Below, piece by piece: positions 2,411 to 30,480 of a stretch of 64,000 nucleotides of DNA (positions within the stretch are counted from its first letter, which is position 1; the number at the start of each line of letters is the position of its first letter). The DNA comes from Nitrospina sp. LS_NOB (GTDB taxonomy: Bacteria > Nitrospinota > Nitrospinia > Nitrospinales > VA-1), in the NCBI GenBank assembly GCA_001542995.1, contig LFLA01000022.1:92587-156586 (forward strand), given 5' to 3'. The notes under the pieces are model-generated. The model did not search any database. It saw nothing but the letters and a program-made list of their open reading frames with translations, and had not been told where the DNA came from. A program made the translations under genes and the position numbers.

Positions 2411-2452
2411 TCTCAGCTTCACTCTGGACGCATAAAGCCAAAATCAGGGGCA

Positions 2453-3184
2453 CTACTTCCCTTCAACCATGTCTAGTTTCCCGTCAAAATTACGATCCAA
2501 CTCTATTCGATCAATTTTCCCGGATGAATTGAAATACTCCCAGCGATCCGTCTTTCCATCAAAATTGGTGTCGTGCTCAACCTTTTGTAATTGAGTGGAG
2601 TCTATAAAATATTGCCATTGATCTGGTTGTCCATCGTGATTGGTGTCAAAGGCGACTGACTGCAAGGACTCACCCTCCCCAAACTTTTCCCAGCGGTCAA
2701 TATTCCCATCACTGGAAATATCATATTCGGCCTTAACCAGTTTTTCATTTTCAGAAAAATACTGAAAAACATCTATTTTACCATCCCCATTTTTATCTAT
2801 TTCAAGTCGAATAATTTTTTTATCCGCATTATAAAACTCGCGCCAATCGATCATCCCTGAAAACCGGGAATCTTTTTCTATTTCAGTGAGTGAAAAGTCC
2901 CGAGAGTAGTGTTGGATTTGATCAAAGATTCCGTCAAAGTTCCGATCTAGTTCAACACGGAGTGGCTTTGTATTTCCCTCATATATTTCAACCTGATCAA
3001 CTTTTTCATCGCCATTTCTATCAAATTCAATTTTTTCAAGTTTACCGTCATCTGTTTTATGATGCCACTGGTCCATTTTGCCATCGAAGTCGCTGTCAAG
3101 CTGAACCACCCCGCCTTCAGCCATCGAGGCCAGAAAAATCAGGGCTCCAATTAAAATAATTATTTTGAATCTGGTTCCAATCAT
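2453..3184 (-). CDS. secreted DxDG-repeat (EF-hand-like, putative Ca-binding) protein, copy 1
   Basis: Signal peptide MIGTRFKIIILIGALIFLASMAEG followed by about 8 evenly spaced D-x-[ND]-x-DG-x-x-D loops (DSDFDGKMD, DRNGDEKVD, DKNGDGKID, DTNHDGQPD, DTNFDGKTD, DRNFDGKLD). Overlaps the tonB stop by 4 nt. Confidence 0.6.
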   Translation of the reverse strand: MIGTRFKIIILIGALIFLASMAEGGVVQLDSDFDGKMDQWHHKTDDGKLEKIEFDRNGDEKVDQVEIYEGNTKPLRVELDRNFDGIFDQIQHYSRDFSLTEIEKDSRFSGMIDWREFYNADKKIIRLEIDKNGDGKIDVFQYFSENEKLVKAEYDISSDGNIDRWEKFGEGESLQSVAFDTNHDGQPDQWQYFIDSTQLQKVEHDTNFDGKTDRWEYFNSSGKIDRIELDRNFDGKLDMVEGK

Positions 3185-4167
3185 CGTTCCTCCAGAATAA
3201 AGGAAATAGGGAGTTTGAAAATAATGGAATCCCTCTGGAGAGGTTCCGGTATTTTTGGATAGGGGCTGGCATTTTTCACAGCATCTAAAGCCGCCTGATT
3301 CAAAACTTCATAAGGCGAAGCAACAGCAATTGAATAGCTCACCAAATTACCATTTTTCCCTACTTGAAATTCTATTACAGGCTTTCCCTCCCATCCGTGC
3401 CGTCGGGCAATCTTCGGATAAAACTTTGCTACTGAAATCTTCCCCCAAACACTGTCTGAAAAACTTTTACTTAGCAATTCAAGGTTCCTGCTGGGTGGTG
3501 CACCGGAAATTTCTGGCGGCCCTAAGCTGGCAGGCAAATTTTCTTCGTGGGAAGCTGCAACAAACTCTTCTGGCATCGAAGTCAATTGGACAGGTTGAAC
3601 ATGACTGGCAGAGGCTTTTCTAATATCACTGACCGCTTCGGGATACCTTTTCCTAGAGGCTATAAACAGACTCTTCTCTCCAGAAATATTTTGCGCTCCA
3701 ATTTTGGAGTTAATAACCGGGATTATACTGGATCGCTTCATTACATTTTCGATCACAGGTCTTTGCAATGCGTTTCCGGGAATACTAACCCTCCGCTTAG
3801 GACTATTGTTCGACAAAGAACTATTGTACTTATAGGCCGATGTCCTAACTGTGGCGATGGGTTGAGTCGGTTTTATTTCCTGGCGAGGCACTGCAGGTAT
3901 AGGTTCTGCCGCATTAGCTTTAGTAAAAACCTTTTCAACAGGAATAACCGCAGGTGCCACCACTTTCTCCATCTTTGGCTTGGTCGAAGGCTCATAAACA
4001 ATCTTTGTGATTTGAATCGGGTTAAATTCTGGCACATGTGGTTTGTGGGTGGTTGTCCAAAATGACAGAAAGTATATCCCGGCTCCATGCACAATAACGG
4101 AAACGACTAAGGCATTTTGAAGAAATCTATTATTGTTTGATCTATATTTCATTGATGATGAAGACAA
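3181..4167 (-). CDS. tonB: TonB family energy transducer
   Basis: N-terminal TM segment, Pro/Lys-rich spacer (KPHVPEFNP..EPSTKPKMEKVVAPAVIPVEK) and a TonB C-terminal domain (GWEGKPVIEFQVGKNGNLV...LNQAALDAVKNASPYPKIP). Confidence 0.75.
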   Translation of the reverse strand: MSSSSMKYRSNNNRFLQNALVVSVIVHGAGIYFLSFWTTTHKPHVPEFNPIQITKIVYEPSTKPKMEKVVAPAVIPVEKVFTKANAAEPIPAVPRQEIKPTQPIATVRTSAYKYNSSLSNNSPKRRVSIPGNALQRPVIENVMKRSSIIPVINSKIGAQNISGEKSLFIASRKRYPEAVSDIRKASASHVQPVQLTSMPEEFVAASHEENLPASLGPPEISGAPPSRNLELLSKSFSDSVWGKISVAKFYPKIARRHGWEGKPVIEFQVGKNGNLVSYSIAVASPYEVLNQAALDAVKNASPYPKIPEPLQRDSIIFKLPISFILEER

Positions 4168-4192
4168 AAGTTAAGGGCACAGATATTATATA

Positions 4193-5614
4193 TCAGCAAT
4201 TAAATAATCGCTTCCACCCTAAAACAACACCGGTAACGCTGAAACCAAAGCCTATAGCAAGAAGTGACAATATCACTATATCCCACAGAGGTCTATGGTT
4301 GGCGAGACCGGGAAAATCCAAGCTGTGCAAACCATTATAAAACCAACGATAGACCCGTCGACTCTTATCCATAATTGACACAATTTGCCCAGAGTCCATA
4401 TCAACATGTATCCAGGTTTGTGCTGGATCATCTAATTTTACTCTGAGTGTATTTGAAGGAAGCGAACCTTCGCGGAGTTGCCCGTAAAAATCAGACTCTT
4501 TAGGCCATTGGGTAGCTTTGATTCCAACATCTGGCCAGGCCTTCTGGACTGCTTTAATGATTTCTGGTTCTGTGTGCCTGGCTGGAGAAAGAATACTTGT
4601 CTTGGAAGGTTTAAACATTTTCAGCCCTTTTGAGTTTCTGGCGAGGACAAAAGATTTTCCGCCTGTTGCTATAAACTCCACCTCACTGAAATTCTCTAAA
4701 AGTTTTAAGGCTTCTAGAGAAACAGATTCCACAGCTTGCTCTAGTGATAACGCGCGGAAATTTTTTATCTGGTGAAATTCAGGGTCTGGTTTGGAAAAAA
4801 GTCGCCCATGATCCATAGATAACCACCCACTAAATATCCAGGTTAGGACAATTATCCCTGCAAACAGTCCCAGAATATGGTGCATACACAACCAGCCTTT
4901 AAAGGGACTTCTACCTGATGCGCCACGAAAGCGAATGATACCCAGTAGCAGTCCAGCCAATGTTGTCATCACACCCATCAGGGAAATCCACCAGACCACT
5001 TGATCCCATAAAACCCAATTGCTTCGTAAGACTGTGGGGTAGATCCAGTGAACAATTGCGCCTATATAATTCCAGGCTCGCTCCCTGGCCTCGGTTTTCT
5101 GCAGAACTTCCCCTGTCCGCATTGAAACATATAACACGGTTTCATTTTGGTCCTGCATAGAAACGCGATAAAACGGGCGATAGGGATCATAACGGTTCGG
5201 CACAATCCATTGATCGTAATCGATAGGCCCTTCAACTCTTAAAGCAGATTTTCCGGAAAAATTTTCCGCTATCCTTCCGGCTGATCTCATTTGAAGAAGA
5301 TTTATCGGCTTGCCATCGTGTGCATCCACAACCTTTATCCCGCTATTGAGGCTATGGAGTACGTAAATGGGGCGCCCTTCCAAATCGATCAACCTGAGAC
5401 GGTCCAGATCAATACTTCCGATGGCCTCGGCGGCCTCTATTGGGGAAACAGTAATCTTTGAGAAGTCGACCTCAGCCCTACTGGAAAGTCGGTCCGCTTG
5501 CGAAAGCGATGGGAAAGGATGGTAAATCAGAACGGCGCCACTTAAAAACCAGGCTGCAAAAAATAAACACAGGACAACCCCCATCCAGCGGTGAGCCAGT
5601 GTTAGATAGCGCAT
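4193..5614 (-). CDS. PepSY-associated TM helix protein (PiuB-like)
   Basis: The opening MRYLTLAHRWMGVVLCLFFAAWFLSGAVLIY and 4 TM segments around periplasmic domains are typical of PepSY-TM proteins found next to TonB-dependent receptors. Confidence 0.7.
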   Translation of the reverse strand: MRYLTLAHRWMGVVLCLFFAAWFLSGAVLIYHPFPSLSQADRLSSRAEVDFSKITVSPIEAAEAIGSIDLDRLRLIDLEGRPIYVLHSLNSGIKVVDAHDGKPINLLQMRSAGRIAENFSGKSALRVEGPIDYDQWIVPNRYDPYRPFYRVSMQDQNETVLYVSMRTGEVLQKTEARERAWNYIGAIVHWIYPTVLRSNWVLWDQVVWWISLMGVMTTLAGLLLGIIRFRGASGRSPFKGWLCMHHILGLFAGIIVLTWIFSGWLSMDHGRLFSKPDPEFHQIKNFRALSLEQAVESVSLEALKLLENFSEVEFIATGGKSFVLARNSKGLKMFKPSKTSILSPARHTEPEIIKAVQKAWPDVGIKATQWPKESDFYGQLREGSLPSNTLRVKLDDPAQTWIHVDMDSGQIVSIMDKSRRVYRWFYNGLHSLDFPGLANHRPLWDIVILSLLAIGFGFSVTGVVLGWKRLFNC

Positions 5615-5632
5615 AAGGTTTACCCGATTTAC

Positions 5633-7802
5633 TTAAAAATCAAACTGAGCGCTGATTTCAAAGGCTCGGGGAGATCCCAGAATTAACTGGTTCGAATAAA
5701 ATTCATCGCCCCAAAGTGCATAAGCCTTATCGAACAGATTTGTCAATCTTGCAGTGTAACGTCCATTTCCTTTGCGATAGGTAGCATGGAGATCCACCGT
5801 TTCGTAGCCCAGCATTTTCACTGTATTGAACCTGGTGTTAAAACGGTCATCAACATAACGAAAACTACCCCCCACATCTATGGGAAGTCCTGCAACACCG
5901 CGATAATTAGTCCAGATATTAGCCACCCATTCAGGAACATTGGACGGGGTATTGCCGGAGACGTTTTCGAAAACACCGAACTCTGCATCGGTATAGGCGG
6001 TGTTGGCTCCGACTCGCCATTTTGGTGTCACCAAAACCGAACCTTCTAGCTCAAATCCGGTGGACCTCTGGCCTCCATCGCCACCCAGAACACTATCGTT
6101 CGAATCTTGTATCAGAATATTTTGCCTTTCAATGTGGTAGACGGCCAAAGTCATTTCTGCTTTCCCATTCAGGAACTTGGACTTCAACCCCGCTTCCCAT
6201 TGTTGCGAAGTAGAAAGGTCAAAGTTCTGGTTACTATTGACAAGAAAAACATCTGATCCTAATGGATCGGTGCCGGAACTCATTTGGGCATAAACGTTCC
6301 AGGATGGAGCAATTTCGTAAACCGCACCAACCCGCCAACTAAAAGGATTATAGGTGCGTTCAAATGATGTTCCAGGAGTAGGATCATTAAAGTTTAGCCG
6401 AAATAACTCTATATGATCCTGACGCATGCCCACGACCAGTCTTAATTTCTCTGTAACTTTTAAAGTATCCTCAAAAAAAGTAGAAACCGTGATAATTCGG
6501 GTAGGATTAAGCCTGAAGTTTGTCGGGTTTCCCCCAAAGGTACCCCCAACGGGTGAAAAAGGGTCGACGGAGCCTGGATCTGCGAGCGGCTGGGACTTTC
6601 TTTTAAAATCCACATAACTTGCATCGACACCTAAAAGAGACTGGTTCTCCATCCCGGCAATGGAGTTTTTATAGGTTGTACTCAGTCGGTTACCAACAGT
6701 GTTTTGGTTATGGGCCACAAAAAAAGTATCACGGTCAACCAAGCTTGTTCCGGAATTGAAGGTATAGTTTTCTGAATTGCGCCATTCCCGGTCCGCATTG
6801 AGGAAGTAGGTATAATTGCGAAAAAAAAGTTTATTGCTGTGTTTCCATTTGGCATCTATCGTTGTTAAAATTTGATAGGACTTTGCCACCTCATCATCAA
6901 CATTGTAATTGACAAACCGCATGGGCTCGTCGATGGCCGCTCCAGCCCCTGTCACGACACCGGTGAGAGGCTGGGTGGCAAATGCTTCTGTCACTATGGG
7001 GGTCCCCCAATAGTTTTGCAGTTTATCTTCCAGGTAATCAATGCCGAAGGTCACATCCAACTGATCATTAGGCTTCCACAATAGCGAACCATTGAAGTTT
7101 CTTGATTTGGGATCGGCATTATCCACGTATCCATCCGAGCTGTATTCACTGCCATCGATCCGAAACCATAAGTTTTCACTCATTTGCCCACCTGCCCCAA
7201 CACCGAGCTTGACCGTGTCATAGCGGCCGTAGGAGGTTAGAAGCTCATAAGAGTTTGAGCTTTCCATCTTCGGTTTTTTGGTGACCATATTTAAGGTCGC
7301 GCCAATGGCCCCCTGACCATGCAATACTGAGGCAGGACCTTTTAGAACCTCGATCCGATCCAGATTGAAACCATTTTGAGGCCGCCCGGTGATTAAAGCC
7401 GGCCCCAACCAGATTCCGTCCCGTTGAATCATGACCTGGTTGGAGGTAAAACCACGCATGGAATAATTGGCAGGCTCTGCAGGAGGGTTTCCCCAAACGA
7501 ACCCGGGAGATCGCTCGAGAGCTTTCCCCACCTCCTGATACCCCCCACCCTTCAATTCAGCGTTGCTGATAACGGTTATTGAGGCCGGGGTTTCAAAAGC
7601 TGGCAGGTCCAGACGACTACTGGTATCGGGAGAAAAATCGAAATTAAATACACTCGGAGTAATGAGTAGTTCGTCCAACTCGATAATGGGCGGGGGGGGA
7701 TACACTCTCATTATTTGCAGCATTTTGAGCCCAGGTAACGGAAAATGCATAGAGTGATGCAATTAAAACTGTTATTACCCCGATTGCTAATTTTTTACTC
7801 AT
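5633..7802 (-). CDS. TonB-dependent outer-membrane receptor; the signal-peptide exon (ATG at 7802) is out of frame with the barrel ORF at a C8 tract (G8 on the + strand, 7692-7699)
   Basis: Plug and barrel motifs are present (ITVISNAELK, IEVLKGPASVLHGQGAIGATLNMVTKKP) and the C-terminus ends in an aromatic residue (...EISAQFDF). GGAGATAACAATG at 7802-7814 encodes MSKKLAIGVITVLIASLYAFSVTWAQNA..., which joins ...PPPIIELDELL only if one C is removed. Confidence 0.8.
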
Positions 7803-7820
7803 TGTTATCTCCGTGCGCGC

Positions 7821-7859
7821 AAAAAAAAACCTCGCGCCTCCTTTGGGAGGTTCGAGGTT
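7821..7859 (-). terminator. riboswitch attenuator terminator (leftward operon)
   Basis: On the - strand: AACCTCG / inner CCTCC-CAAA-GGAGG / CGAGGTT followed by T9. It lies between the aptamer and the receptor RBS. Confidence 0.7.
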
Positions 7860-8080
7860 GATTGCACCCTGATTTACTTCATCAACATTTGAGCAACCAC
7901 CCAGTATTCCTCGAGAGGTGGCACCCTTATTTATTCCAGGCAGGTCTTCTGACTCGCGTTCACCCTACTTTCTGCACCTTCCCAGCTAAACACCAGTGGC
8001 TTTTCGCAGATTTCGTCACGCTCACAGCGGCGGGACCGTGGTTGAATTTCGCAACCTTCCCTATTATTTCCTGAAAGAAA
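7860..8080 (-). promoter_or_regulatory. cobalamin (AdoCbl) riboswitch controlling the TonB-dependent receptor operon
   Basis: - strand core GGGAAGGTTGCGAAATTCAACCACGGTCCCGCCGCTGTGAGCG ... GCCACTGG ... GGGAAGGTG ... B12 box GAGTCAGAAGACCTGCC. A candidate P1 pairs TTTCAGG with CCTGGAA. Confidence 0.85.
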
Positions 8081-8804
8081 ATCAAATTTTCGCTTCCAGG
8101 AAACCTGAAAAACTTCCGCTAGCATAAATGAAAAAAATCAGGCGTCAAGTAATTTATAAAAAACACCCTAAGCATTAGGGCAACTGCCTGTTAACCTGAG
8201 ATATTCAATTTTCCCTGTTCCAGTAAAAACAAGCAGTTCCCCGCCTGCATGAAAACCGAACTCCTCATAAGGATTTTTTAGCGCCCAATGCTCTCCGAAA
8301 GGAAAGGCCAGTGGCTTTAATGAGATGAAGAATAAGTCCTAACAAATATTCATACTTTGTCTGATACTGCGCTATCCGAATTCTTATTATCTTTAGAAAA
8401 GCTGAAAGGGTATTGAGAGTATCGGGTAACCGAGGCGCAGGAGTTTTCCTAATCTTGCGCCGGTTCGGTTTTTCAAGACGTTCACCTACTGGACCTGCTC
8501 CCTCCCTCCGCATGGTAACCTCTCCCTCCATAATCTTAGTTTTCATGAAAAGCGTTGAAGCTAAACCCTAATCCATAATTCGTTTGACCCAGACCATTGA
8601 CTCCTTCTCCCTCTGAACTCACCGGTATATCTACCCAGCTAAAATATACCCATAACACCTTGAATTTAAGGGACATGAAACTGGGAGAAACGCGCATTTA
8701 AGTAGACAACCAACCAAAAATCAAGGAAATGATTGAAATTGCATTTATTACTTGTAAATATCTGGAAGTTCTACAATAATGTCGCTTGAAATTATATGTT
8801 TTAG

Positions 8805-9026
8805 GTTTCCTGTATTTAGGGAATGAAAAGGGAAGGTTGTGAAATTCAACCACGGTCCCGCCGCTGTGAGCGTGACGAAATCTGCGAAAAGCCACTGGTG
8901 TTTAGCTGGGAAGGTGCAGAAAGTAGGGTGAACGCGAGTCAGAAGACCTGCCTGGAATTATAAATATTGCCTTTTGGGTTCAAAAGGTAAATCTATTTGG
9001 TTGATTAAGTAAACCAGGGTGCAATC
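8805..9026 (+). promoter_or_regulatory. cobalamin (AdoCbl) riboswitch controlling the cob biosynthetic operon
   Basis: Same core on the + strand at 8830-8958, including GCCACTGG, GGGAAGG and the B12 box AGTCAGAAGACCTGCC (8938-8953). It is an inverted copy of 7933-8061. Confidence 0.85.
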
Positions 9027-9064
9027 AACCTCAGTCCTCGATTTAGAGGGGTGAGGTTTTTTTT
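9027..9064 (+). terminator. riboswitch attenuator terminator (rightward operon)
   Basis: AACCTCA / inner CCTC-GATTTA-GAGG / TGAGGTT followed by a T8 run, upstream of the first gene start at 9145. Confidence 0.7.
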
Positions 9065-9144
9065 ACCGTTTTTAATTAAGAGTAACCGTTTACCCATATA
9101 TTGATTTGGCCAATTCATTTAAAAATTTAATGAGAGGTTTCGCC

Positions 9145-10335
9145 ATGAAAAAAATAGTATCCCTTTTTTGCCTCATTGCTTTTCTTAACCCGGTAAATCT
9201 TTTTGCTTTTGATTGGAAAAACCACGATTTGTCCAATCTCGTGGTGGTCACCAATCGCGATGCAGATGAATTGACCATCGTTGATATGACAACAGATGAG
9301 GTGATCGGCAAACAAAAAGTGGCACTAAACAGTCAGGCCCATATGACGGCATTTTCTCCGGATGGAAAAAAGTTGGCCATTGCAGCCACCGCGAACAACA
9401 AAGTTGCAGTCCTGGATCTGAATACCAATAAAGTGAGTGAAATTAATGTGGGGGCCGGTCCCGAGCATATGGACATCAGCAAAGACAATCGCTGGTTGTA
9501 TGTCGGGAACATTGAAGGCGGAACGGTTTCAGCGATTGATTTGAATCAAAACCGGGAAGTAGCCCGCCTCCAAGGTTTTCGTGAACCTCATGGCGCTACA
9601 ATCATGGCTTCTGGCAATAAAGTTTATATTCCCAACCGCGGCGCCCAGTTAGTAGGGATGGTGAATGTGTCTGAACAATTTTCTACCAGTGATATTCTCG
9701 TCGGATCTCTTACCGGTTTGGCCTCGTTCGACAGAGATCAAGCAGGAGCTGCCATGCACCGGGAACGGTCTATACCTGTAAATGGAGTGGCGAATGTCAC
9801 CCTGACACTGGATGAAAAATTTGCTTATATCGCCACCGGAGATGCAAATTCTGTGACGGTTTTAGATACCGCAACAGATAAAATAGTCCGCACCATTCCT
9901 GTCGGCTTGGACCCTTGGCGGGCATACGCTTCCCCGGATGGAAAATATATGGTTGTTCCCAACAACGGCGATCAAACGGTCTCAGTCATTGATGCGCAAT
10001 CCCATACACTCGTTGCCACCCTCCCCGGAGCGGACGATATGACAGGAGTGAATTTTGCCAGCAACAAAGGATATGTGATCAGCCGAGGGTCGAGCATGGT
10101 TTTTGTCTACGATTTCTCGACACTTAAAAAGACGGGTCAACTGGATATGGGTAAGAGCGCACGGCTGGAAACTGCAAGCACTTCCCCTGCGGGCAACAAA
10201 ATTTATGTGGCCTCTTCCTCCGACAATTCCCTCTACGTCATTGATGTTGAGTCGGATCGCGTCAAGCGAATCAAGGATGTCGGCAATTTCCCCTGGGGAG
10301 TCAGCATTTACAAGGGGCAGAATTACTGCCATTGA
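9145..10335 (+). CDS. periplasmic YVTN-type beta-propeller repeat protein
   Basis: Signal peptide MKKIVSLFCLIAFLNPVNLFA. About 7 blades show the SPDGK..Y(V/I)(A/P)N.....(V/I)SVID pattern (FSPDGKKLAIAATANNKVAVLD, ASPDGKYMVVPNNGDQTVSVID, SPAGNKIYVASSSDNSLYVID). The ORF track starts at 9106; the ATG at 9145 with GAGAGG upstream is preferred. Confidence 0.65.
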   Translation: MKKIVSLFCLIAFLNPVNLFAFDWKNHDLSNLVVVTNRDADELTIVDMTTDEVIGKQKVALNSQAHMTAFSPDGKKLAIAATANNKVAVLDLNTNKVSEINVGAGPEHMDISKDNRWLYVGNIEGGTVSAIDLNQNREVARLQGFREPHGATIMASGNKVYIPNRGAQLVGMVNVSEQFSTSDILVGSLTGLASFDRDQAGAAMHRERSIPVNGVANVTLTLDEKFAYIATGDANSVTVLDTATDKIVRTIPVGLDPWRAYASPDGKYMVVPNNGDQTVSVIDAQSHTLVATLPGADDMTGVNFASNKGYVISRGSSMVFVYDFSTLKKTGQLDMGKSARLETASTSPAGNKIYVASSSDNSLYVIDVESDRVKRIKDVGNFPWGVSIYKGQNYCH

Positions 10336-10411: not shown

Positions 10412-11362
10412 ATGAACATGGATGAAACTGCGGCTCTGCCCGATGACTACGCCATTTGTATCGCAGGCCATGGAAGCCGTGATAAGGAAGGCATACAGGA
10501 ATTTTTGACCTTGTCTTCAAAGTTCAAGGAAAGAGAGCCTCATAGAATTGTGGAATGCGGCTTTCTGGAGTTTGCAAAACCTACGATCGACGAAGCCATT
10601 AGTAAATGTGTGCAGGATGGGATCAACAATATTGTTGTGATTCCGGGGGTGTTGATGGCTGCGGGTCATGCCAAGAATGATATGCCCAGTGAAGTCCTGT
10701 CCATGGCTCGAAAATTTCCTGCCATGAATATTCAATATGGTCGCCCTCTGGATATCCATCCGAAAGTTTTAAAAGTTTGCGCTGACCGCATTGAATCGGC
10801 TGAGAACTCTTCCTCGCAAAAAACTCTGCGTTCCGACACTTTACTCATGACAGTGGGACGCGGTAGCAGTGACCCGGATTCCAATTCCAATATCGCCAAA
10901 GTCTCCCGAATGTTATGGGAGGGAATGGGATTTAGCTGGTCAGAAACAAGCTTCATTGGGGTCACACAGCCCCTGTTGCCAGACGCTCTAGATAAAGTCC
11001 TTAAAATGGGATTTAAGCGCATTATCGTCTTTCCCTTTTTCCTTTTCACAGGCGTGTTAGTGAAAAGGATTTTTTCCATAACCGATGATTTTCAGAAAAA
11101 ATACCCTGGCACGGAATTTCTGAAAGCTCCTTATCTGAATTATGATGATTTGATCGTCGATGTTTTCATGGAAAGGGCCCGGGAAATTCCTTTTGGCCTT
11201 CAGGATATGAATTGCCAGCTTTGTAAATACCGCGAGCAGGTGATAGGTTTCGAGGATCAGGTGGGGCAACCCCAGGCGGGCCATCATCACCATGTTCGGG
11301 GTATTGATGGCCATCATGGTTTGGACCATGAACATCATAGTCATTCAGACCATGAGCACTAA
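10412..11362 (+). CDS. cbiX: sirohydrochlorin cobaltochelatase, long form with His-rich tail
   Basis: Two CbiX halves (IAGHGSRD and TVGRGSSDPD). C-terminal CQLCKY followed by GHHHHVRGIDGHHGLDHEHHSHSDHEH. Confidence 0.8.
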   Translation: MNMDETAALPDDYAICIAGHGSRDKEGIQEFLTLSSKFKEREPHRIVECGFLEFAKPTIDEAISKCVQDGINNIVVIPGVLMAAGHAKNDMPSEVLSMARKFPAMNIQYGRPLDIHPKVLKVCADRIESAENSSSQKTLRSDTLLMTVGRGSSDPDSNSNIAKVSRMLWEGMGFSWSETSFIGVTQPLLPDALDKVLKMGFKRIIVFPFFLFTGVLVKRIFSITDDFQKKYPGTEFLKAPYLNYDDLIVDVFMERAREIPFGLQDMNCQLCKYREQVIGFEDQVGQPQAGHHHHVRGIDGHHGLDHEHHSHSDHEH

Positions 11363-17670: not shown

Positions 17671-17710
17671 AAGCCCTTAAAATGGTTACAACTAAAATTA
17701 ACAGGTGCCT

Positions 17711-19489
17711 ATGACTACACCCTATTTCCCGTTTTCTGCCATCGTTGGACAGGAAAAATTAAAAGAAGCCCTTGTGCTAAACGCTGTCAATCCCTCCATT
17801 GGCGGAGTATTGATTTTTGGACAAAAAGGAACTGCAAAATCCACCGCAGTGCGAGGTTTAAAAAACATATTAGGACTCATCTCCTCCAAGAAGAAGGATG
17901 TTCCTTTGGTAGAACTTCCCCTGTCGGCCACGGAAGAAATGATTGTGGGAACCATAAACATACCCAATACCCTGAAATCCGAACAAATTCAGATTGAGTA
18001 CGGTCTGCTGCATAAAGCAAATAACGGAATCATTTACATCGATGAAGTGAATCTGCTTGAGGACCATCTGGTGGATGTGATTTTGGATGCTGCCGCGATG
18101 GGAGTCAATAGAATTGAAAGAGAAGGCATCAGCCATGAGCACCCAGCAAATTTCATCCTCATAGGAACAATGAATCCTGAAGAAGGAGAATTGCGCCCAC
18201 AACTTTTGGATCGGTTCGGAATATCCGCAAAAATCAAAACAGAAACAGAGGTGGATATAAGAAAGGAAATTGTTAGCCGTAGACTGGCATGGGAAGAAGA
18301 AAAGCAAAGCTTCACAGAAAAATGGCAGCAAGATGAAAACTGCATTGGTGAGTCGATTGAAAAAGCCAAGCAGCTTCTGCCCAAGGTAGTCTTGAGCGAA
18401 AAATATTTGGAGTTGGCCATAAACCTTACGTTACAAGCTAATGTGGAGGGCCACCGGGCCGACATTATTATATCCAAAACAGCTAAAACCCTGGCCGCCT
18501 TAGCGGGGAGACTGGAAGTCAATGAGAATGACATATATCGTGCCGCCGAGTATGCTCTGAACCATCGCACGGATTCTATTCCCACTCCTCCATCAAACGA
18601 ATCCCCAGATAAGAAGACGGAGACCCCGGCTCAGGATGAAAGCACCGAAACCCAGTCGGGCAACAAACCTCAATCGTTCCAGACCGAGCAACCCCCAGCC
18701 ACTCAAAATTTTAAGACTCTCGATATCATTACAAATGCTGCTCAAAATAATGTAGCAGGGAGAACCATGGATAGAAAACAAAAGGTTCGGCGGGGTAAAG
18801 TAATTGGCTCTGTGGATTCGAACACACAAACAGCAAACCTGTCTGAAATCGCCTTTTTCCCTACCCTTCTAAACGGAATCCGAAGAGGAAAAAAGAAACT
18901 TTCTGATATTGCTCCCGACGATCTCCGTTTTAAGCGAAGAATTTCAGGCAGGAAAGAACTGCATGTTCTTGTTGTGGACACCTCAGCATCCATGGGAACC
19001 TTACAACGCCTTTCCTATGCAAAGGGTCTGATGCAAAGGATCCTCAAGAATGATTATCAAAAGAAAAATTATGTCGCTGTTGTCGGAACTCAGGGGGACC
19101 GCGCCAACGTGGTATTAAAACCCACACGCAATTTTTTTCAGATAGATCAAGTCATGGATTCCCTCAAGGCAAAAGGGAAAACCCCCTTACTGCATGCTAT
19201 TGACAGCGCCTTGAATCTTGTTGAAAGCTTTCACAGGCAAAACAAATTCCTCACAAATTTACTTGTAATTATATCCGACGGAAAATTGAACGTCCCCTTC
19301 CAAAAATCAGTCGGCGAAGATTTACAAGGATTGGGCAAGCGTATCAAGAAACTTAATCTGAACAATTTCATTGTCGATTCCAATCAAAAATTCAACCGTT
19401 CTTTTCTGTTAAAAAAAATGGTCAGCATTTTTGATGGACGATATATGGTTATGGAAGACACCCTTCTTCAAGGAAAGATTTCTCTTTGA
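17711..19489 (+). CDS. ChlI/ChlD-like AAA+ plus vWA chelatase subunit (partner of CobN)
   Basis: [16 protein letters not shown], Walker [10 protein letters not shown], Walker [11 protein letters not shown], and a C-terminal vWA domain with MIDAS motif VVDTSASM. Confidence 0.8.
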
Positions 19490-19506
19490 ATCTTTATATT
19501 TAAAAA

Positions 19507-22500
19507 ATGGCAATATACTTTTTTGTATCCGTTTCATCGGATTTGCATCTCTTCTCCGAGAATATCGATGAGATTAGGGATCTAGGAATTGAGGCCCACG
19601 TCAACTACCTCTCAGAGTTTTCCCAGTATGAGTCCCGGTTGAGTTCAAAGGATGTTATTGTTTCAAGGAATTTTGGTGGACTTTCTTTTCAAGGCGAGAT
19701 ATTGACGCGCATCAATTCCGTTGCCAAAAAGAACCGCATCCCCTTTCTCTGTCTTCCCAGTTTCAAGAATGATGATCCATCAGTACTCGCCCTATCCACA
19801 GCCCCTCTTGATATTTGCAACCAGCTCCTTTCCTATTACGAATCGTTTTCGTTCCCGAACCTGAAGGAATCGCTGAAGTATTTGAGTGACCTGTATCTCG
19901 GAACATCTTTGGGATGGGTTGAACCCGAGGTTTGTCCTGAATTTAGTTTGCTTCCTGGATACGAGGACATCCTTTCAAAGTTAAAATCGGATAAATCCAG
20001 GAAAAAAGTAATAGCCATTCTTTTTTACCGGGCCCATTTTCTTGCAGATGATTTTGAGCCTATCCAAATGACCATCGACTCCATTGAAAAATCCGGATCC
20101 GTGGCCCTGCCCATTTACTGCAGTATGATGAAGCAATCAGACGGAGAGACACACCCGATTGAAAAAATTCTAAAGAATGATCAAGACGGATACATCGCAG
20201 ATGTGGTGATCGATTGTCTTTCCTATGCAACAGCTGATTTATCCACTACCGGAAATATAGTGAAGGGCGATAAAGATTCCGATGGCCTGTTCGTAAAATT
20301 AAATTGCCCAATTCTTCACGCCCTTTACATCTCAGAATCTGAAAGCGCTTGGCTCCAAAACCCTAAAGGGATGAACCCTCGTGACATGGCCATGAAGGTG
20401 GTCATGCCGGAATTTGACGGGAAAATCATCGCCCACCCCATTGGGTTTGTGGAGCAAGCACATAAAAATGGCAAAATGGTACCTTTATATAAAGGCAACT
20501 CTGAACGCATTGAACGATTGGTTTCCCTGGCCAACAACTTTGCTGAATTAGCTTTCAAGGACAATAAAGATAAACGGATAGCTATTATCCTGACAAATTA
20601 TCCCACTCAGAATGCCCGCATCGGCAACGCAGTCGGACTAGACACTCCCGCATCCCTGATCCGTGTCCTGAATGAGCTTAAAAATAATGGGTACGACATC
20701 GATGGCATTCCCAAAACCGGTGATGAGCTAATCCATTCTCTTATCGATCAGGTCACCTACGACACTGAATTTCTAACGGAAACCCAAATTGAGTTAGCTC
20801 CCGCACAAGTGGATTCAAAAGACTACAAGAATTGGCACGGATCTTTCCCCAAAAAAAACCAATCAGAAATGGAAAAGGACTGGGGACAACCTCCCGGTAA
20901 TGTCTACACTCACAAAGGAAAATTTTATTTGCCGGGATTATTTTTTAAAAATGTGTTTGTAGGCATTCAGCCCCCACGCGGATTCGGGGAGAACCCTGTA
21001 GCAATTTATCATAGTCCGGAAATTGTTCCCACTCATCACTACATGGCCTTTTACCGCTGGCTTAAAGAGGGCTTTAACGCGGATGCTGTCATTCACATCG
21101 GTAAACATGGGAACCTGGAATGGTTGCCTGGGAAATCTGTAGCCCTCGCCGAAACCTGTTATTCAGACCTTGCCATTTTTGACCTTCCCTTCTTTTATTA
21201 TTTTATTATCAATAATCCCGGTGAGGGCTCGCAGGCGAAACGCAGGACGCATTCCGTACTGATCGACCACATGGTCCCGCCTATGACAAGGGCCGATCTT
21301 TATGATGATCTGGCGCGGATAGAACAATTGATTGAAGAGTGGACGTATATTCAAAGTGTTGATCCCGACAAGGTCGAAATTGTTGAAAATCAGATATGGG
21401 AACTTTGCGAATCCACTCACATCAATCATGACCTTGGGTTTGATTCTCCCCCTGAACATTTCAAAGAGTATCGAAAGGCCATTAACGGATTTCTATGCGA
21501 AATTGGTAATACCCAGATTCGGGAAGGCCTTCACATACTGGGCGAAATTCCCGAGGGGGATCAACTCATCAACATGTTTGTCAGTTTGGCACGTATTGAT
21601 ACTCCTCCCTACAAAGGCACGCAGTCATGCTTTATGGCGGTTTGCGGCATAAAGGATACCTCTTATTTCATCAACCAAGCTGAGGAATTGAATTGTAAAA
21701 TCCCCGCAGCCATTCTAAAATTTTACGGAAAACCTGTTGAATCGCGGGGTGATTTATTACAGATGTTCGACATCCTCTCCTTTGCAATTATCGATCATTG
21801 CCTCAAGAATAATATCCACACGCAGGAACTCATTGACGCCGAGATCGAATCATTATTGAGCGTTCCAATCCCCGACTTGGCCAACACGATCCATTTTCTA
21901 TTAAAGGATATCTATCCAAAGTTGAAACAGGTTGATGAGGAGATCATTCACCTCATGGAAGCATTAAAGGGAGAATTTGTTGAACCGGGGCCTTCGGGAG
22001 CCCCCACAAGGGGAATGGCCACCATTCTTCCGACCGGGAGAAATTTTTATTCCGTCGATATTCATTCCTTGCCCACGACGACTTCGTGGATCATGGGAAA
22101 AAAACTGGCTGAAGCTCTATTGAATCGATATGAAATGGAATCGGAGAAATTTCCTGAATCCGTGGCGATGATTCTTTGGGGAACGTCCAATATGAGAACC
22201 AAGGGCGATGACATTGCACAAATCTTTTACTTGTTGGGGGTCAAACCGGTCTGGAAACCGGAAAATAAGAGAGTCATCGGGGTTGAACCTATCCCGTTAG
22301 ATGAATTGAAGCGACCCAGGGTGGATGTATGCATTCGTATCAGTGGGTTCTTCCGGGATGCGTTTCCAAACCTGGTTGAATTGATGGACAAAGCAATAAA
22401 TTTAGTTGCCCAGCTTGACGAGCCTGTGGAAATGAATTTTGTGAGAAAACATTATCTGGAGTCCAATTCCAAAAATATATTTCGTATTTTTGGCGCCGCA

Positions 22501-23214
22501 CCGGGAAGGTATGGGACAGGCATTCTTGAAGCCATCAATTCAAAAAACTGGGAAACCAAGCAGGACCTGGCAGACATCTTTGTGAATTGGAGCGGTTTCG
22601 CTTACACAACCAATGAATATGGCATAGAAAAAAAAGAGGAATTCAAACAACAACTCTCGCGTATGGATATTGTCTCCCAGAACCAGGACAACAGGGAGCA
22701 TGATATTTTTGATTCCGATGATTATCTCCAGTTTCACGGTGGATTGATCAATGCCGTCAACCAAATAAAATCCAGCCAGGGTAAGGGAAAGGTCCGGGAA
22801 TATTTCGGCGACTCCTCCAATCCTGCCGCAGTGAAAATCAAGAGTTTGAAGGAAGAAGTCCGCCAAGTCTACCGAGCCAGAGTCGTGAATCCGAAATGGA
22901 TTAACGCCATGAAACAACATGGCTACAAAGGGGGGCTGGAAATGGCGGCAACCCTGGATTACATGTTCGGCTACGACGCAACAACGGGTGTCATTGACGA
23001 CCATATGTATGAAGGTGTTTCGGAGAAGTACCTCATTGACCCTGATACCCAGGAGTTTCTAAGAGAAAAAAATCCGTGGGCCATTCGTGCAATGGGAGAA
23101 AGATTGCTCGAAGCAGCCAATCGAGGCCTATGGGAAAACCCCGATCCCGACAGATTGCTTGATATTGAATCCCTTGTTGCCTCTGTGGAAGGGGATATCG
23201 AACAAGATCTTTAA
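19507..23214 (+). CDS. cobN: CobN-type large chelatase subunit
   Basis: 1235 aa. CobN/BchH family blocks are present: HHYMAFYRWLKEGFNADAVIHIGKHGNLEWLPGK, PTGRNFYS, GRYGTG. Confidence 0.9.
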   Translation: MAIYFFVSVSSDLHLFSENIDEIRDLGIEAHVNYLSEFSQYESRLSSKDVIVSRNFGGLSFQGEILTRINSVAKKNRIPFLCLPSFKNDDPSVLALSTAPLDICNQLLSYYESFSFPNLKESLKYLSDLYLGTSLGWVEPEVCPEFSLLPGYEDILSKLKSDKSRKKVIAILFYRAHFLADDFEPIQMTIDSIEKSGSVALPIYCSMMKQSDGETHPIEKILKNDQDGYIADVVIDCLSYATADLSTTGNIVKGDKDSDGLFVKLNCPILHALYISESESAWLQNPKGMNPRDMAMKVVMPEFDGKIIAHPIGFVEQAHKNGKMVPLYKGNSERIERLVSLANNFAELAFKDNKDKRIAIILTNYPTQNARIGNAVGLDTPASLIRVLNELKNNGYDIDGIPKTGDELIHSLIDQVTYDTEFLTETQIELAPAQVDSKDYKNWHGSFPKKNQSEMEKDWGQPPGNVYTHKGKFYLPGLFFKNVFVGIQPPRGFGENPVAIYHSPEIVPTHHYMAFYRWLKEGFNADAVIHIGKHGNLEWLPGKSVALAETCYSDLAIFDLPFFYYFIINNPGEGSQAKRRTHSVLIDHMVPPMTRADLYDDLARIEQLIEEWTYIQSVDPDKVEIVENQIWELCESTHINHDLGFDSPPEHFKEYRKAINGFLCEIGNTQIREGLHILGEIPEGDQLINMFVSLARIDTPPYKGTQSCFMAVCGIKDTSYFINQAEELNCKIPAAILKFYGKPVESRGDLLQMFDILSFAIIDHCLKNNIHTQELIDAEIESLLSVPIPDLANTIHFLLKDIYPKLKQVDEEIIHLMEALKGEFVEPGPSGAPTRGMATILPTGRNFYSVDIHSLPTTTSWIMGKKLAEALLNRYEMESEKFPESVAMILWGTSNMRTKGDDIAQIFYLLGVKPVWKPENKRVIGVEPIPLDELKRPRVDVCIRISGFFRDAFPNLVELMDKAINLVAQLDEPVEMNFVRKHYLESNSKNIFRIFGAAPGRYGTGILEAINSKNWETKQDLADIFVNWSGFAYTTNEYGIEKKEEFKQQLSRMDIVSQNQDNREHDIFDSDDYLQFHGGLINAVNQIKSSQGKGKVREYFGDSSNPAAVKIKSLKEEVRQVYRARVVNPKWINAMKQHGYKGGLEMAATLDYMFGYDATTGVIDDHMYEGVSEKYLIDPDTQEFLREKNPWAIRAMGERLLEAANRGLWENPDPDRLLDIESLVASVEGDIEQDL

Positions 23215-29356: not shown

Positions 29357-30096
29357 ATGAAGACAACCCGACTGAAAAAAAATACTTTTTTGCCGGATTC
29401 CTCATTTTCACCCTTGCTTCGCTTGCGGAAGCTGTGGTGATCCCGGTGGATAGCGATTCCGATGGCAAGCTGGACCAATGGCACCATAAATCGGAGGGCG
29501 GCCAACTGCTGAAAATTGAATACGATAAAAACGGAGACAAGAAGATTGATCAAATTGATATTTTTGAGGGTAATGCAAAACCTATCCGCGTTGAACTGGA
29601 CCGCAATTTAGACGGAACCCTGGATCAGGTTCAGCATTACTCCAAAGACTTTATCCTTGAGTATGTTGAAAAGGACTCCAAATATTCTGGACTGATGGAC
29701 TGGCGTGAAGTATATGGCCCGAACAACAAAGTGACGCGTCTGGAGACTGACGAAAACCAGAACGGAAAAATGGATGTCTTTCAATATTTTTCTGAAGAGG
29801 GGTACATGGAGCGTGTGGAGTATGACACTTCCCATGACGGACAAATTGACCGGTGGGAAACTTTCGGAGCCAATGAGGCCCTGAAGTTGGCCAGCTTCGA
29901 TGCCAACCAAGACGGAAACCCGGACCAGTGGCAATATTTCAAAAATTCCACGCAATTACAAAAAGTGACGCACGATACAAATTTTGATGGCAAGCCAAAC
30001 CGTTGGGAATATTTTGACGATTCCGGAAAATTGGAGCGTGTCGAAATAGACGACAACTATGACGGCAAACTGGACATTATTAAAAGGAGACCCTAA
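29357..30096 (+). CDS. secreted DxDG-repeat protein, copy 2; signal peptide out of frame at an A8 tract (29375-29382)
   Basis: The ATG at 29357 gives MKTTRLKK, then the frame breaks. With A9 (or a -1 slip) it reads MKTTRLKKKYFFAGFLIFTLASLAEAVVIPVDSDSDGK..., collinear with copy 1. The track ORF starts at the GTG at 29434. Confidence 0.6.
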
Positions 30097-30105
30097 TTCC
30101 CGCCC

Positions 30106-30480
30106 ATGAAACAACTCCCTATTCTTATATTTATCTCTGTTATTTTTACTTTTTCATGCGCCCCGAAACCCACACTGGAAGTGCCGGAACCTTATAAAAA
30201 GGGGCAACAGTATTTTCATGAAGTCTGCTCCAATTGCCACGGCCCAGACGCAATGGGCAAACATACTCAGGCTCCCAGGCTTATTGATGAGGAATACCTC
30301 GCTGATAATTTCTCCGATGCAGATATCAACGAGATCGTACTGAATGGCACCGATAAAATGCCTCCACAAAAAAAGAATGTGACACCTGAGGAAATCACCG
30401 AAATCATCAAATACCTGCGTTATTCACAAAAAGCGGCAGGACTCGAACAGGAAGAAGAGGAAGAAGAACAAACTTCTTAA
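30106..30480 (+). CDS. small monohaem class I c-type cytochrome, probable lipoprotein, acidic tail
   Basis: Signal/lipobox ...VIFTFSC, haem motif CSNCH, distal Met in GTDKMPP, C-terminal EQEEEEEEQTS. Confidence 0.7.
   Translation: MKQLPILIFISVIFTFSCAPKPTLEVPEPYKKGQQYFHEVCSNCHGPDAMGKHTQAPRLIDEEYLADNFSDADINEIVLNGTDKMPPQKKNVTPEEITEIIKYLRYSQKAAGLEQEEEEEEQTS

Follow-up and report, generated by a model that had tools for sequence, protein, structure and literature searches.

A 64,000-nucleotide (nt) stretch of contig LFLA01000022.1 from Nitrospina sp. LS_NOB, a member of the Nitrospinales, hereafter the window, contains two almost identical cobalamin (B12) riboswitches placed back to back. The left copy (L) is read from the minus strand into a TonB-dependent receptor operon and the right copy (R) from the plus strand into a ~23-kilobase (kb) operon of cob genes. 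Comparison with related Nitrospinaceae genomes indicates that the pair very probably goes back to an old duplication, the 129-nt aptamer core of which has been kept near-identical within a genome by recurrent gene conversion, with both switches presumably functional and served by separate sigma-70-like promoters.

Both aptamers were recognized as members of family RF00174 by Rfam cmscan run at gathering thresholds (gathering score 31.5 for this family). The right aptamer (8787-8969, plus strand) scored 117.7 bits (E = 7e-29) and the left aptamer (7922-8123, minus strand) 112.4 bits (E = 2e-27), and both matches cover model positions 1-189 untruncated. GGGAAGG, GCCACTGG and the B12 box AGTCAGAAGACCTGCC are present in both copies, where they align with the consensus at high posterior probability and correspond to the conserved junction motifs and B12 box of the family (GGGAAG, GCCACUG and AGYCAG-AGACCUGCC). 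These scores lie far above the threshold and substantiate the cobalamin riboswitch hallmarks that a sequence-only reading of the window had pointed out. The same holds for the outward orientation that it described: by strand and gene annotation, each copy is the same-strand 5' leader of a B12-related operon, the receptor operon on one side and the cob operon on the other. No riboswitch other than these two was found in the 64-kb window at gathering thresholds. Judged by its sequence, the locus is a pair of paralogous, divergently transcribed cobalamin riboswitches, and the aptamers themselves are ordinary representatives of RF00174.

The similarity of the two copies is concentrated in one sharply bounded tract. 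Direct comparison of the arms showed that 8830-8958 is the reverse complement of 7933-8061 at 128 of 129 nt, an identity of 99.2%. The only mismatch, a T at 8840 against a C on the minus strand at 8051, is the T/C difference in GGTTG(T/C)GAAATTC that had been noted by eye. An inverted repeat of 129 nt with at most one mismatch has a chance expectation of ~2e-66 in 64 kb. An inverted-repeat search extended the arms to 7920-8076 and 8815-8971 (157 nt, 92% complementary, 738-nt gap) and found a weaker outer repeat at 7822-7886 and 9000-9064 (65 nt, 80%), which coincides with the two expression platforms. The arm comparison and the site patterns described below delimit the core: in the left copy (7933-8061, minus strand) it runs from GGGAAGG in J2/3 to the B12 box and the 3' strand of P1, and in the right copy (8830-8958, plus strand) it forms the corresponding homogenized tract. 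At both edges of the core, identity between L and R is lost abruptly. The adjoining 5' segment, comprising P2 and the promoter, is only ~36% identical (30 matches, 54 mismatches), and the linker on the other side is ~43% identical (18 matches, 24 mismatches) and unalignable.

The same pair, with the same side-specific flanks, is present in six other Nitrospinaceae genomes: L001 (OZ253496.1), L002 (OZ242182.1), L003, L009, L006 and L011. Further assemblies exist for L006 (L019 and L020) and for L011 (L021 plus L017); the seven genomes with both copies, the window included, thus correspond to ten assemblies. The beta-propeller proteins encoded next to the right copy in the pair-bearing genomes are 82-97% identical to that of the window, L001 (97%) and L002 (92%) being the closest loci by this measure. 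The copies lie between ~0.4 kb and 6.4 kb apart. Every genome carries the 5' part with a long P2 and the L-type linker on the left copy, and a short P2 with the R-type linker on the right. The comparison with orthologous loci that had been proposed as a check returned the same pair in six relatives, colinear and with orthologous flanks. Because the side-specific flanks are orthologous among the sampled genomes, the duplication predates their divergence. In the more distant L007 and L008 (66% identity), two dissimilar riboswitches lie on one strand, the first ahead of the beta-propeller gene and the second ahead of the receptor gene.

This conservation bears directly on two other explanations of the near-identity. 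One is that the inverted duplication is very recent and that its copies are too young to differ, as the 99.2% identity of the cores would fit. A fresh duplicate should not lose its identity abruptly at the borders of the core, however, and the orthology of the flanks in six other genomes makes the duplication older than the divergence of those genomes. Diverged cores also persist in L003, L009 and L006. We therefore regard a recent origin as highly improbable; of the two possibilities that the sequence-only reading had put forward, recent duplication and gene conversion, only the second agrees with the pair being shared by relatives, with cores that are genome-specific and flanks that are side-specific. 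The other explanation is an assembly artefact, in which a collapsed or chimeric join produced a false inverted duplicate. Assemblers can be misled by repeats, and a Logan contig from SRR2064712 ends 31 nt into this one; a break at k = 31 is, however, what a genuine two-copy repeat is expected to cause in a de Bruijn graph. The architecture recurs in assemblies from different projects and technologies, namely the complete chromosomes OZ253496.1 and OZ242182.1 and contig JABHBK010000042.1, and further in the independently assembled Ga0233439, Ga0233445, JAJDBI and JAJDBH contigs. Each copy moreover has unique, functional-looking flanks. The probability of an artefact, which had been named as one of the outcomes that would overturn the observation, is accordingly close to negligible.

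Within genomes, the two cores differ to very different degrees. L and R are identical in L001 and differ by one mismatch in the window, two in L002, six in L011, eight in L009, nine in L003 and 15 in L006, where two indels are added. The 5' segment beside the core remains at ~36% L/R identity in every genome. Between genomes, cores on the same side differ at 6-7 sites and one indel for the window and L001, and at 8-10 sites for L001 and L002, the overall range being 3-10. Each core difference between the window and L001 is found in both the L and the R copy of the genome concerned. Among these differences are a 2-nt insertion and compensatory changes in the P6 hairpin (CUGGUGUU-UAGCUGG versus CUGACGUUACUCGUUGG).

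Four-taxon site patterns were used to count genome-specific and side-specific columns in the core and in the flanks, and the two regions were compared by a Fisher test. For the window and L001, the core has eight genome-specific and no side-specific columns and the flanks have one and 75 (p = 2e-10). The corresponding counts are ten and none against one and 66 for L001 and L002 (p = 1e-11), and two and none against none and 71 for the window and L002 (p = 4e-4). Elsewhere in the clade homogenization is partial or not recent. The left copy of L011 is a mosaic, with insertions of the R type in the 3' core half and an L-type P3 kept in the 5' half, and the cores of L003 and L009 are still side-specific, with seven side-specific and no genome-specific columns. 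The core of L001 is nearer to the type found in the right copy of L003 (seven differing columns) than to the window type (8-9), which hints that a variant patch may have been imported into L001 and then copied to its partner.

Other cobalamin riboswitches in these genomes provide a measure of ordinary divergence. The copies at these loci (a third riboswitch, M, in L003 and L009, and riboswitches a and b in L007 and L008) are ~76-80% identical over aligned positions, compared with 95% for the whole pair of the window with its diverged P2 included. The premise that riboswitch paralogues normally drift apart is therefore valid for this group.

Strong selection is another conceivable source of such identity: purifying selection alone could hold both aptamers to one optimum without recombination, and constraint is indeed strong, since 94 of 134 core columns are invariant over all 18 copies. 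The remaining 40 columns vary among genomes, however, and L006 tolerates its 15 mismatches and two indels between its own copies. The variants of the window, L001 and L002 that are common to both copies, including the 2-nt indel and the compensatory P6 changes, would require repeated, identical parallel changes under selection alone. We give this explanation very little credence. Gene conversion accounts for the pattern through recurrent non-reciprocal homologous recombination between the inverted copies, presumably of a RecA type, which would homogenize the core. The borders of the converted tract coincide with the loss of similarity, which occurs at P2 in the 5' direction and at the linker in the 3' direction.

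Inverted repeats that bracket promoters also raise the possibility of an invertible element. The arms at 7933-8061 and 8830-8958 flank both promoter-like sites, and flipping of the ~770-nt spacer between them would swap the promoters, together with the 5' strand of P1 and P2, as a form of phase variation. The near-identity of the 129-nt arms is compatible with this, as is the evidence from gene conversion that they do recombine; P1 could survive the swap, since CCUGGAA pairs with UUUUAGG as well as with UUUCAGG. Yet no inverted spacer was found in the seven genomes with both copies: all ten assemblies, including two complete long-read chromosomes, keep the long-P2/L-type and short-P2/R-type joins, so that the 5' type always matches the 3' type, and the spacers of L001, L002, L006 and metagenome contigs are colinear with that of the window. 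In the 5' segment, the 'crossed' pattern occupies 0-4 columns, against 9-52 side-specific ones. Among the annotated genes scanned at 232-34434, from ~8 kb to the left of the locus to 25 kb to its right, none had a recombinase or invertase domain. Inversion would moreover give no ON/OFF outcome, since either orientation leaves each switch with a promoter, which counts against an inverton. The suggestion that the promoter-bearing spacer could invert thus stands as regards the arms, which are a formal substrate, and finds no support in the assemblies as regards the inverted form, and phase variation by inversion is very unlikely. A weaker version, in which an occasional crossover flips the spacer and exchanges promoters between the uptake and biosynthesis operons, giving a regulatory polymorphism in Nitrospinaceae populations, is also unlikely, if slightly less so.

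Look-ups of the exact beta-propeller and CbiX proteins returned no record, and that of the PepSY_TM protein of the left operon gave one Logan contig. This contig (SRR2064712) matches the left side of the locus at 100% identity and stops 31 nt inside the repeat; because it breaks there, it says nothing on the orientation of the spacer.

The spacer between the promoters (8149-8751) is non-coding and poorly conserved, according to Rfam and the relatives. An Rfam search of it at E <= 1 found no known RNA and gave only the edge of the right riboswitch. A 93-amino-acid (aa) open reading frame at 8265-8546 on the minus strand was rejected as a gene: it has no Pfam match, a 1-nt indel shifts its frame in L001, and L002 has lost it by deletion. 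Close to the left promoter, on its upstream side, the minus strand carries two hairpins with T-runs that resemble terminators (8229-8248 and 8164-8182). They could insulate the left leader from transcription that passes through the spacer; no conserved gene precedes them.

Pairwise alignment of both leaders and an alignment of 16-18 related leaders revealed a common layout. Both leaders contain, in the same order, a promoter-like site, the 5' strand of P1 with P2, the core, a linker hairpin, a conserved box and a terminator. Consensus scans placed the left promoter-like site at 8121-8148 (minus strand, TTGACG-16-TATGCT) and the right one at 8752-8780 (plus strand, TTGTAA-17-AATAAT). A CTTGAC block is kept upstream of the L copies of other genomes, and the R copies are likewise preceded by a conserved CTTGTAAAT...TACAATAAT block. 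By pairwise alignment, P2 of the left aptamer is ~18 nt longer than the short P2 of the right aptamer. The left-specific linker hairpin, which connects the aptamer to the expression platform, occupies 7887-7932 (minus strand) and is orthologous to the L linkers of the other genomes; its right-specific counterpart, GCCUUUUGGGUUCAAAAGGU, was placed at 8967-8990 (plus strand) by folds and the leader alignment.

The conserved box has the consensus GUUGAU..A(A/U)CAGGGUGCAAUCAAC on both sides. In the left leader (7860-7886, minus strand) it reads GUUGAU..AAAUCAGGGUGCAAUCAAC, forms part of the outer inverted repeat, is nearly invariant across all 18 L and R leaders and holds an anti-P1 sequence resembling CCAGG as well as a short hairpin overlapping the terminator at its 5' foot. 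The right box (8999-9030, plus strand) was defined by RNAalifold and folding and has its CCAGG at 9014-9018. The left intrinsic terminator (7821-7859, minus strand) consists of the stem AACCUCGAACCUCC/GGAGGCGCGAGGUU followed by U9, as seen in the sequence, in RNA folds and with RNAalifold; in the right one (9027-9065, plus strand), which folds and RNAalifold also support, the stem AACCUCAGUCCUC/GAGGGGUGAGGUU is followed by U8. Over 18 leaders, RNAalifold retained the terminator stem, with six double (compensatory) changes at one pair. It also paired CCUGG at 8951-8955, on the 3' strand of P1, with CCAGG at 9014-9018 further downstream, in agreement with the single-sequence fold, and this helix shows one compensatory double change, CCUAG/CUAGG in the right copy of L002.

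The conserved CCUGG:CCAGG helix suggests how the leaders might switch. With B12 bound, P1 would form and the terminator would form, turning transcription OFF; without ligand, the CCUGG strand of P1 would pair instead with the conserved CCAGG next to the terminator. The OFF state would silence the left receptor/uptake operon as well as the right beta-propeller/cob operon. We infer from this arrangement, including the ligand response and the details of switching, that both leaders switch transcription OFF by termination, P1 and the downstream CCAGG being competitors for one strand.

Several points weigh against our interpretation. With respect to function, minimum-free-energy folds of full and 3'-truncated leaders contained no clear antiterminator, which leaves the conserved CCUGG:CCAGG alternative helix as the sole basis of the switching model. 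In both full leaders the terminator is already present in the minimum-free-energy structure, where the aptamer, the linker hairpin, a short P13-like hairpin and the terminator coexist, which makes the switching logic uncertain. The first gene behind the left switch is frameshifted in this genome, and the switch may thus at present control a defective gene. With respect to conversion, the evidence consists of sequence comparison and consensus assemblies. The eight core differences that separate the window from L001 are concentrated in the P6 hairpin and may have arrived as a single imported patch, not as eight mutations, so that the independent conversion events would be few, at least two to three in the clade. 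Homogenization also does not follow spacing. The pair of L006, with a 411-nt spacer, is the most diverged; spacing was therefore rejected as a predictor of homogenization, the rate of which differs among lineages.

The left operon (minus strand) comprises four genes, encoding the TonB-dependent receptor (5633-7802, with Pfam Plug and beta-barrel domains), a PepSY_TM protein (4193-5614), TonB (3181-4167) and a 243-aa repeat protein. The receptor matches the siderophore-receptor model TIGR01783 at 230 bits (cut-off 223.5) and the BtuB model TIGR01779 at only 69 bits (cut-off 599.7). These scores place the protein in the siderophore-receptor subfamily and not among BtuB-like receptors. The order receptor, PepSY_TM and TonB is typical of metal-chelate uptake and not of a classical BtuB system; a corrinoid or a cobalt chelate is a possible substrate.

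The receptor gene is frameshifted at a C8 run (7692-7699; G8 on the plus strand), which splits it into pieces at 7644-7802 and 5633-7762, with the signal peptide in one frame and the plug and barrel in another. With C7 the gene would be in frame again, and L001 and L006 have intact orthologues. Since an independent Logan assembly of short reads (L023, SRR2064712) shows C8 at this position as well, the frameshift is probably real, and the split receptor is probably either a pseudogene or a slippage-prone on/off tract.

The right operon begins with a gene for a secreted YVTN-type beta-propeller protein (9145-10335, plus strand) and extends over ~23 kb to ~32489. CbiX, CbiC, CbiD, four corrin methylases, CbiG and CbiJ come first among its cob genes, and the others include chelatase subunits (CobN among them), CobB/CbiA, CobO, CobS, CobU, CobD/CobC and CobT. 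The operon combines a CbiX-type chelatase, typical of the early-insertion route (10412-11362), with a CobN chelatase and its fused ChlI/ChlD-like subunit, typical of the late-insertion route (17705-23214). A cytochrome c gene is embedded in it at 30106-30480. Both operons carry a paralogue of the repeat protein (2453-3184, minus strand, and 29434-30096, plus strand), 63% identical over 216 aa. These paralogues are uncharacterized, rich in a D-x-D-G-K motif and have weak matches to EF-hand and DUF6802; the repeat protein may be linked to B12 or cobalt.

The gene content around the riboswitches varies among relatives. In L003 (3395-3516) and L009 (3387-3572), the dissimilar riboswitch M lies next to the left copy and drives genes for a BtuF/BtuD/BtuC-like ABC transporter, CobQ and a CobA-HemD fusion; M is similar to the riboswitch that precedes the beta-propeller gene in L007 and L008. 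A ~6-kb cassette, corresponding to window positions ~2449-8460, is missing from the very close L022 (WASV01039986.1; 97% amino-acid identity) and from L005. On it lie the repeat protein, TonB, PepSY_TM and receptor genes together with the left riboswitch and ~340 nt from the left end of the spacer. In both of these genomes CobQ is directly upstream of the right riboswitch, and no terminal repeats were seen at the cassette junctions. In L002 (2422-9243) and L011 (L021+L017), the left leader is kept from promoter to terminator and drives genes for a porin-like protein and a beta-propeller paralogue. Homology with the window stops at the U-run of the terminator (window position 7820) and other genes follow, which indicates that the left leader was retained and the cassette downstream of it exchanged. 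In L010 (9300-10001) and L018, the right core and most of its expression platform are deleted (the equivalent of window positions 8858-9029), which leaves only the left copy and a remnant of the right leader ahead of the beta-propeller/cob operon.

The two riboswitches share with the RF00174 leaders of E. coli btuB and Salmonella cob the full-length match, the B12 box, the P6 extension, the position as 5' leaders of B12 biosynthesis or uptake-type operons and an expression platform with a predicted intrinsic terminator. They differ in what they control, the left operon having a siderophore-subfamily receptor with PepSY_TM rather than a BtuB-type one and the right operon starting with a secreted beta-propeller protein. 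Two aptamers in one intergenic region are also a feature of tandem riboswitches, such as the glycine tandem aptamers and the SAM and AdoCbl riboswitches of Bacillus clausii metE. Here, however, the aptamers lie on opposite strands, in separate transcripts and ahead of different operons, and no cooperative or Boolean logic operates on one mRNA. The resemblance to fimS and hin-type invertons is confined to inverted repeats that bracket a promoter-containing segment. The arms are 129-nt functional riboswitch cores instead of short recombinase sites, no recombinase gene is present among those scanned and the assemblies hold no second orientation, so that the locus does not qualify as an inverton.

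The evolutionary behaviour matches that of duplicated bacterial genes that evolve in concert by gene conversion, such as the inverted tufA and tufB genes of Salmonella and the rRNA operons. There, as here, inverted paralogues are near-identical within a genome and differ between genomes, and their flanks are orthologous. In the present case conversion acts on the 129-nt core of a non-coding regulatory RNA, a unit much shorter than a tuf gene or an rRNA operon, and the riboswitch copies lie close together. Recombination between repeats is itself well known, and we consider the concerted evolution of a riboswitch pair a modest evolutionary novelty. Full-text literature searches found no paper on gene conversion or concerted evolution of riboswitches; one candidate precedent, PMC3848588, proved unrelated.

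Gene conversion at this locus keeps the ligand-sensing parts of an uptake-type operon and of the B12 biosynthesis operon identical, and a new aptamer variant, including compensatory changes in a stem, can reach both operons at once. The usual assumption is that riboswitch paralogues evolve independently. Converted copies that are counted as independent can mislead phylogenies and covariation statistics. For the organisms themselves, the locus documents how B12 regulation is wired in Nitrospina-like nitrite oxidizers with a complete-looking cob operon.

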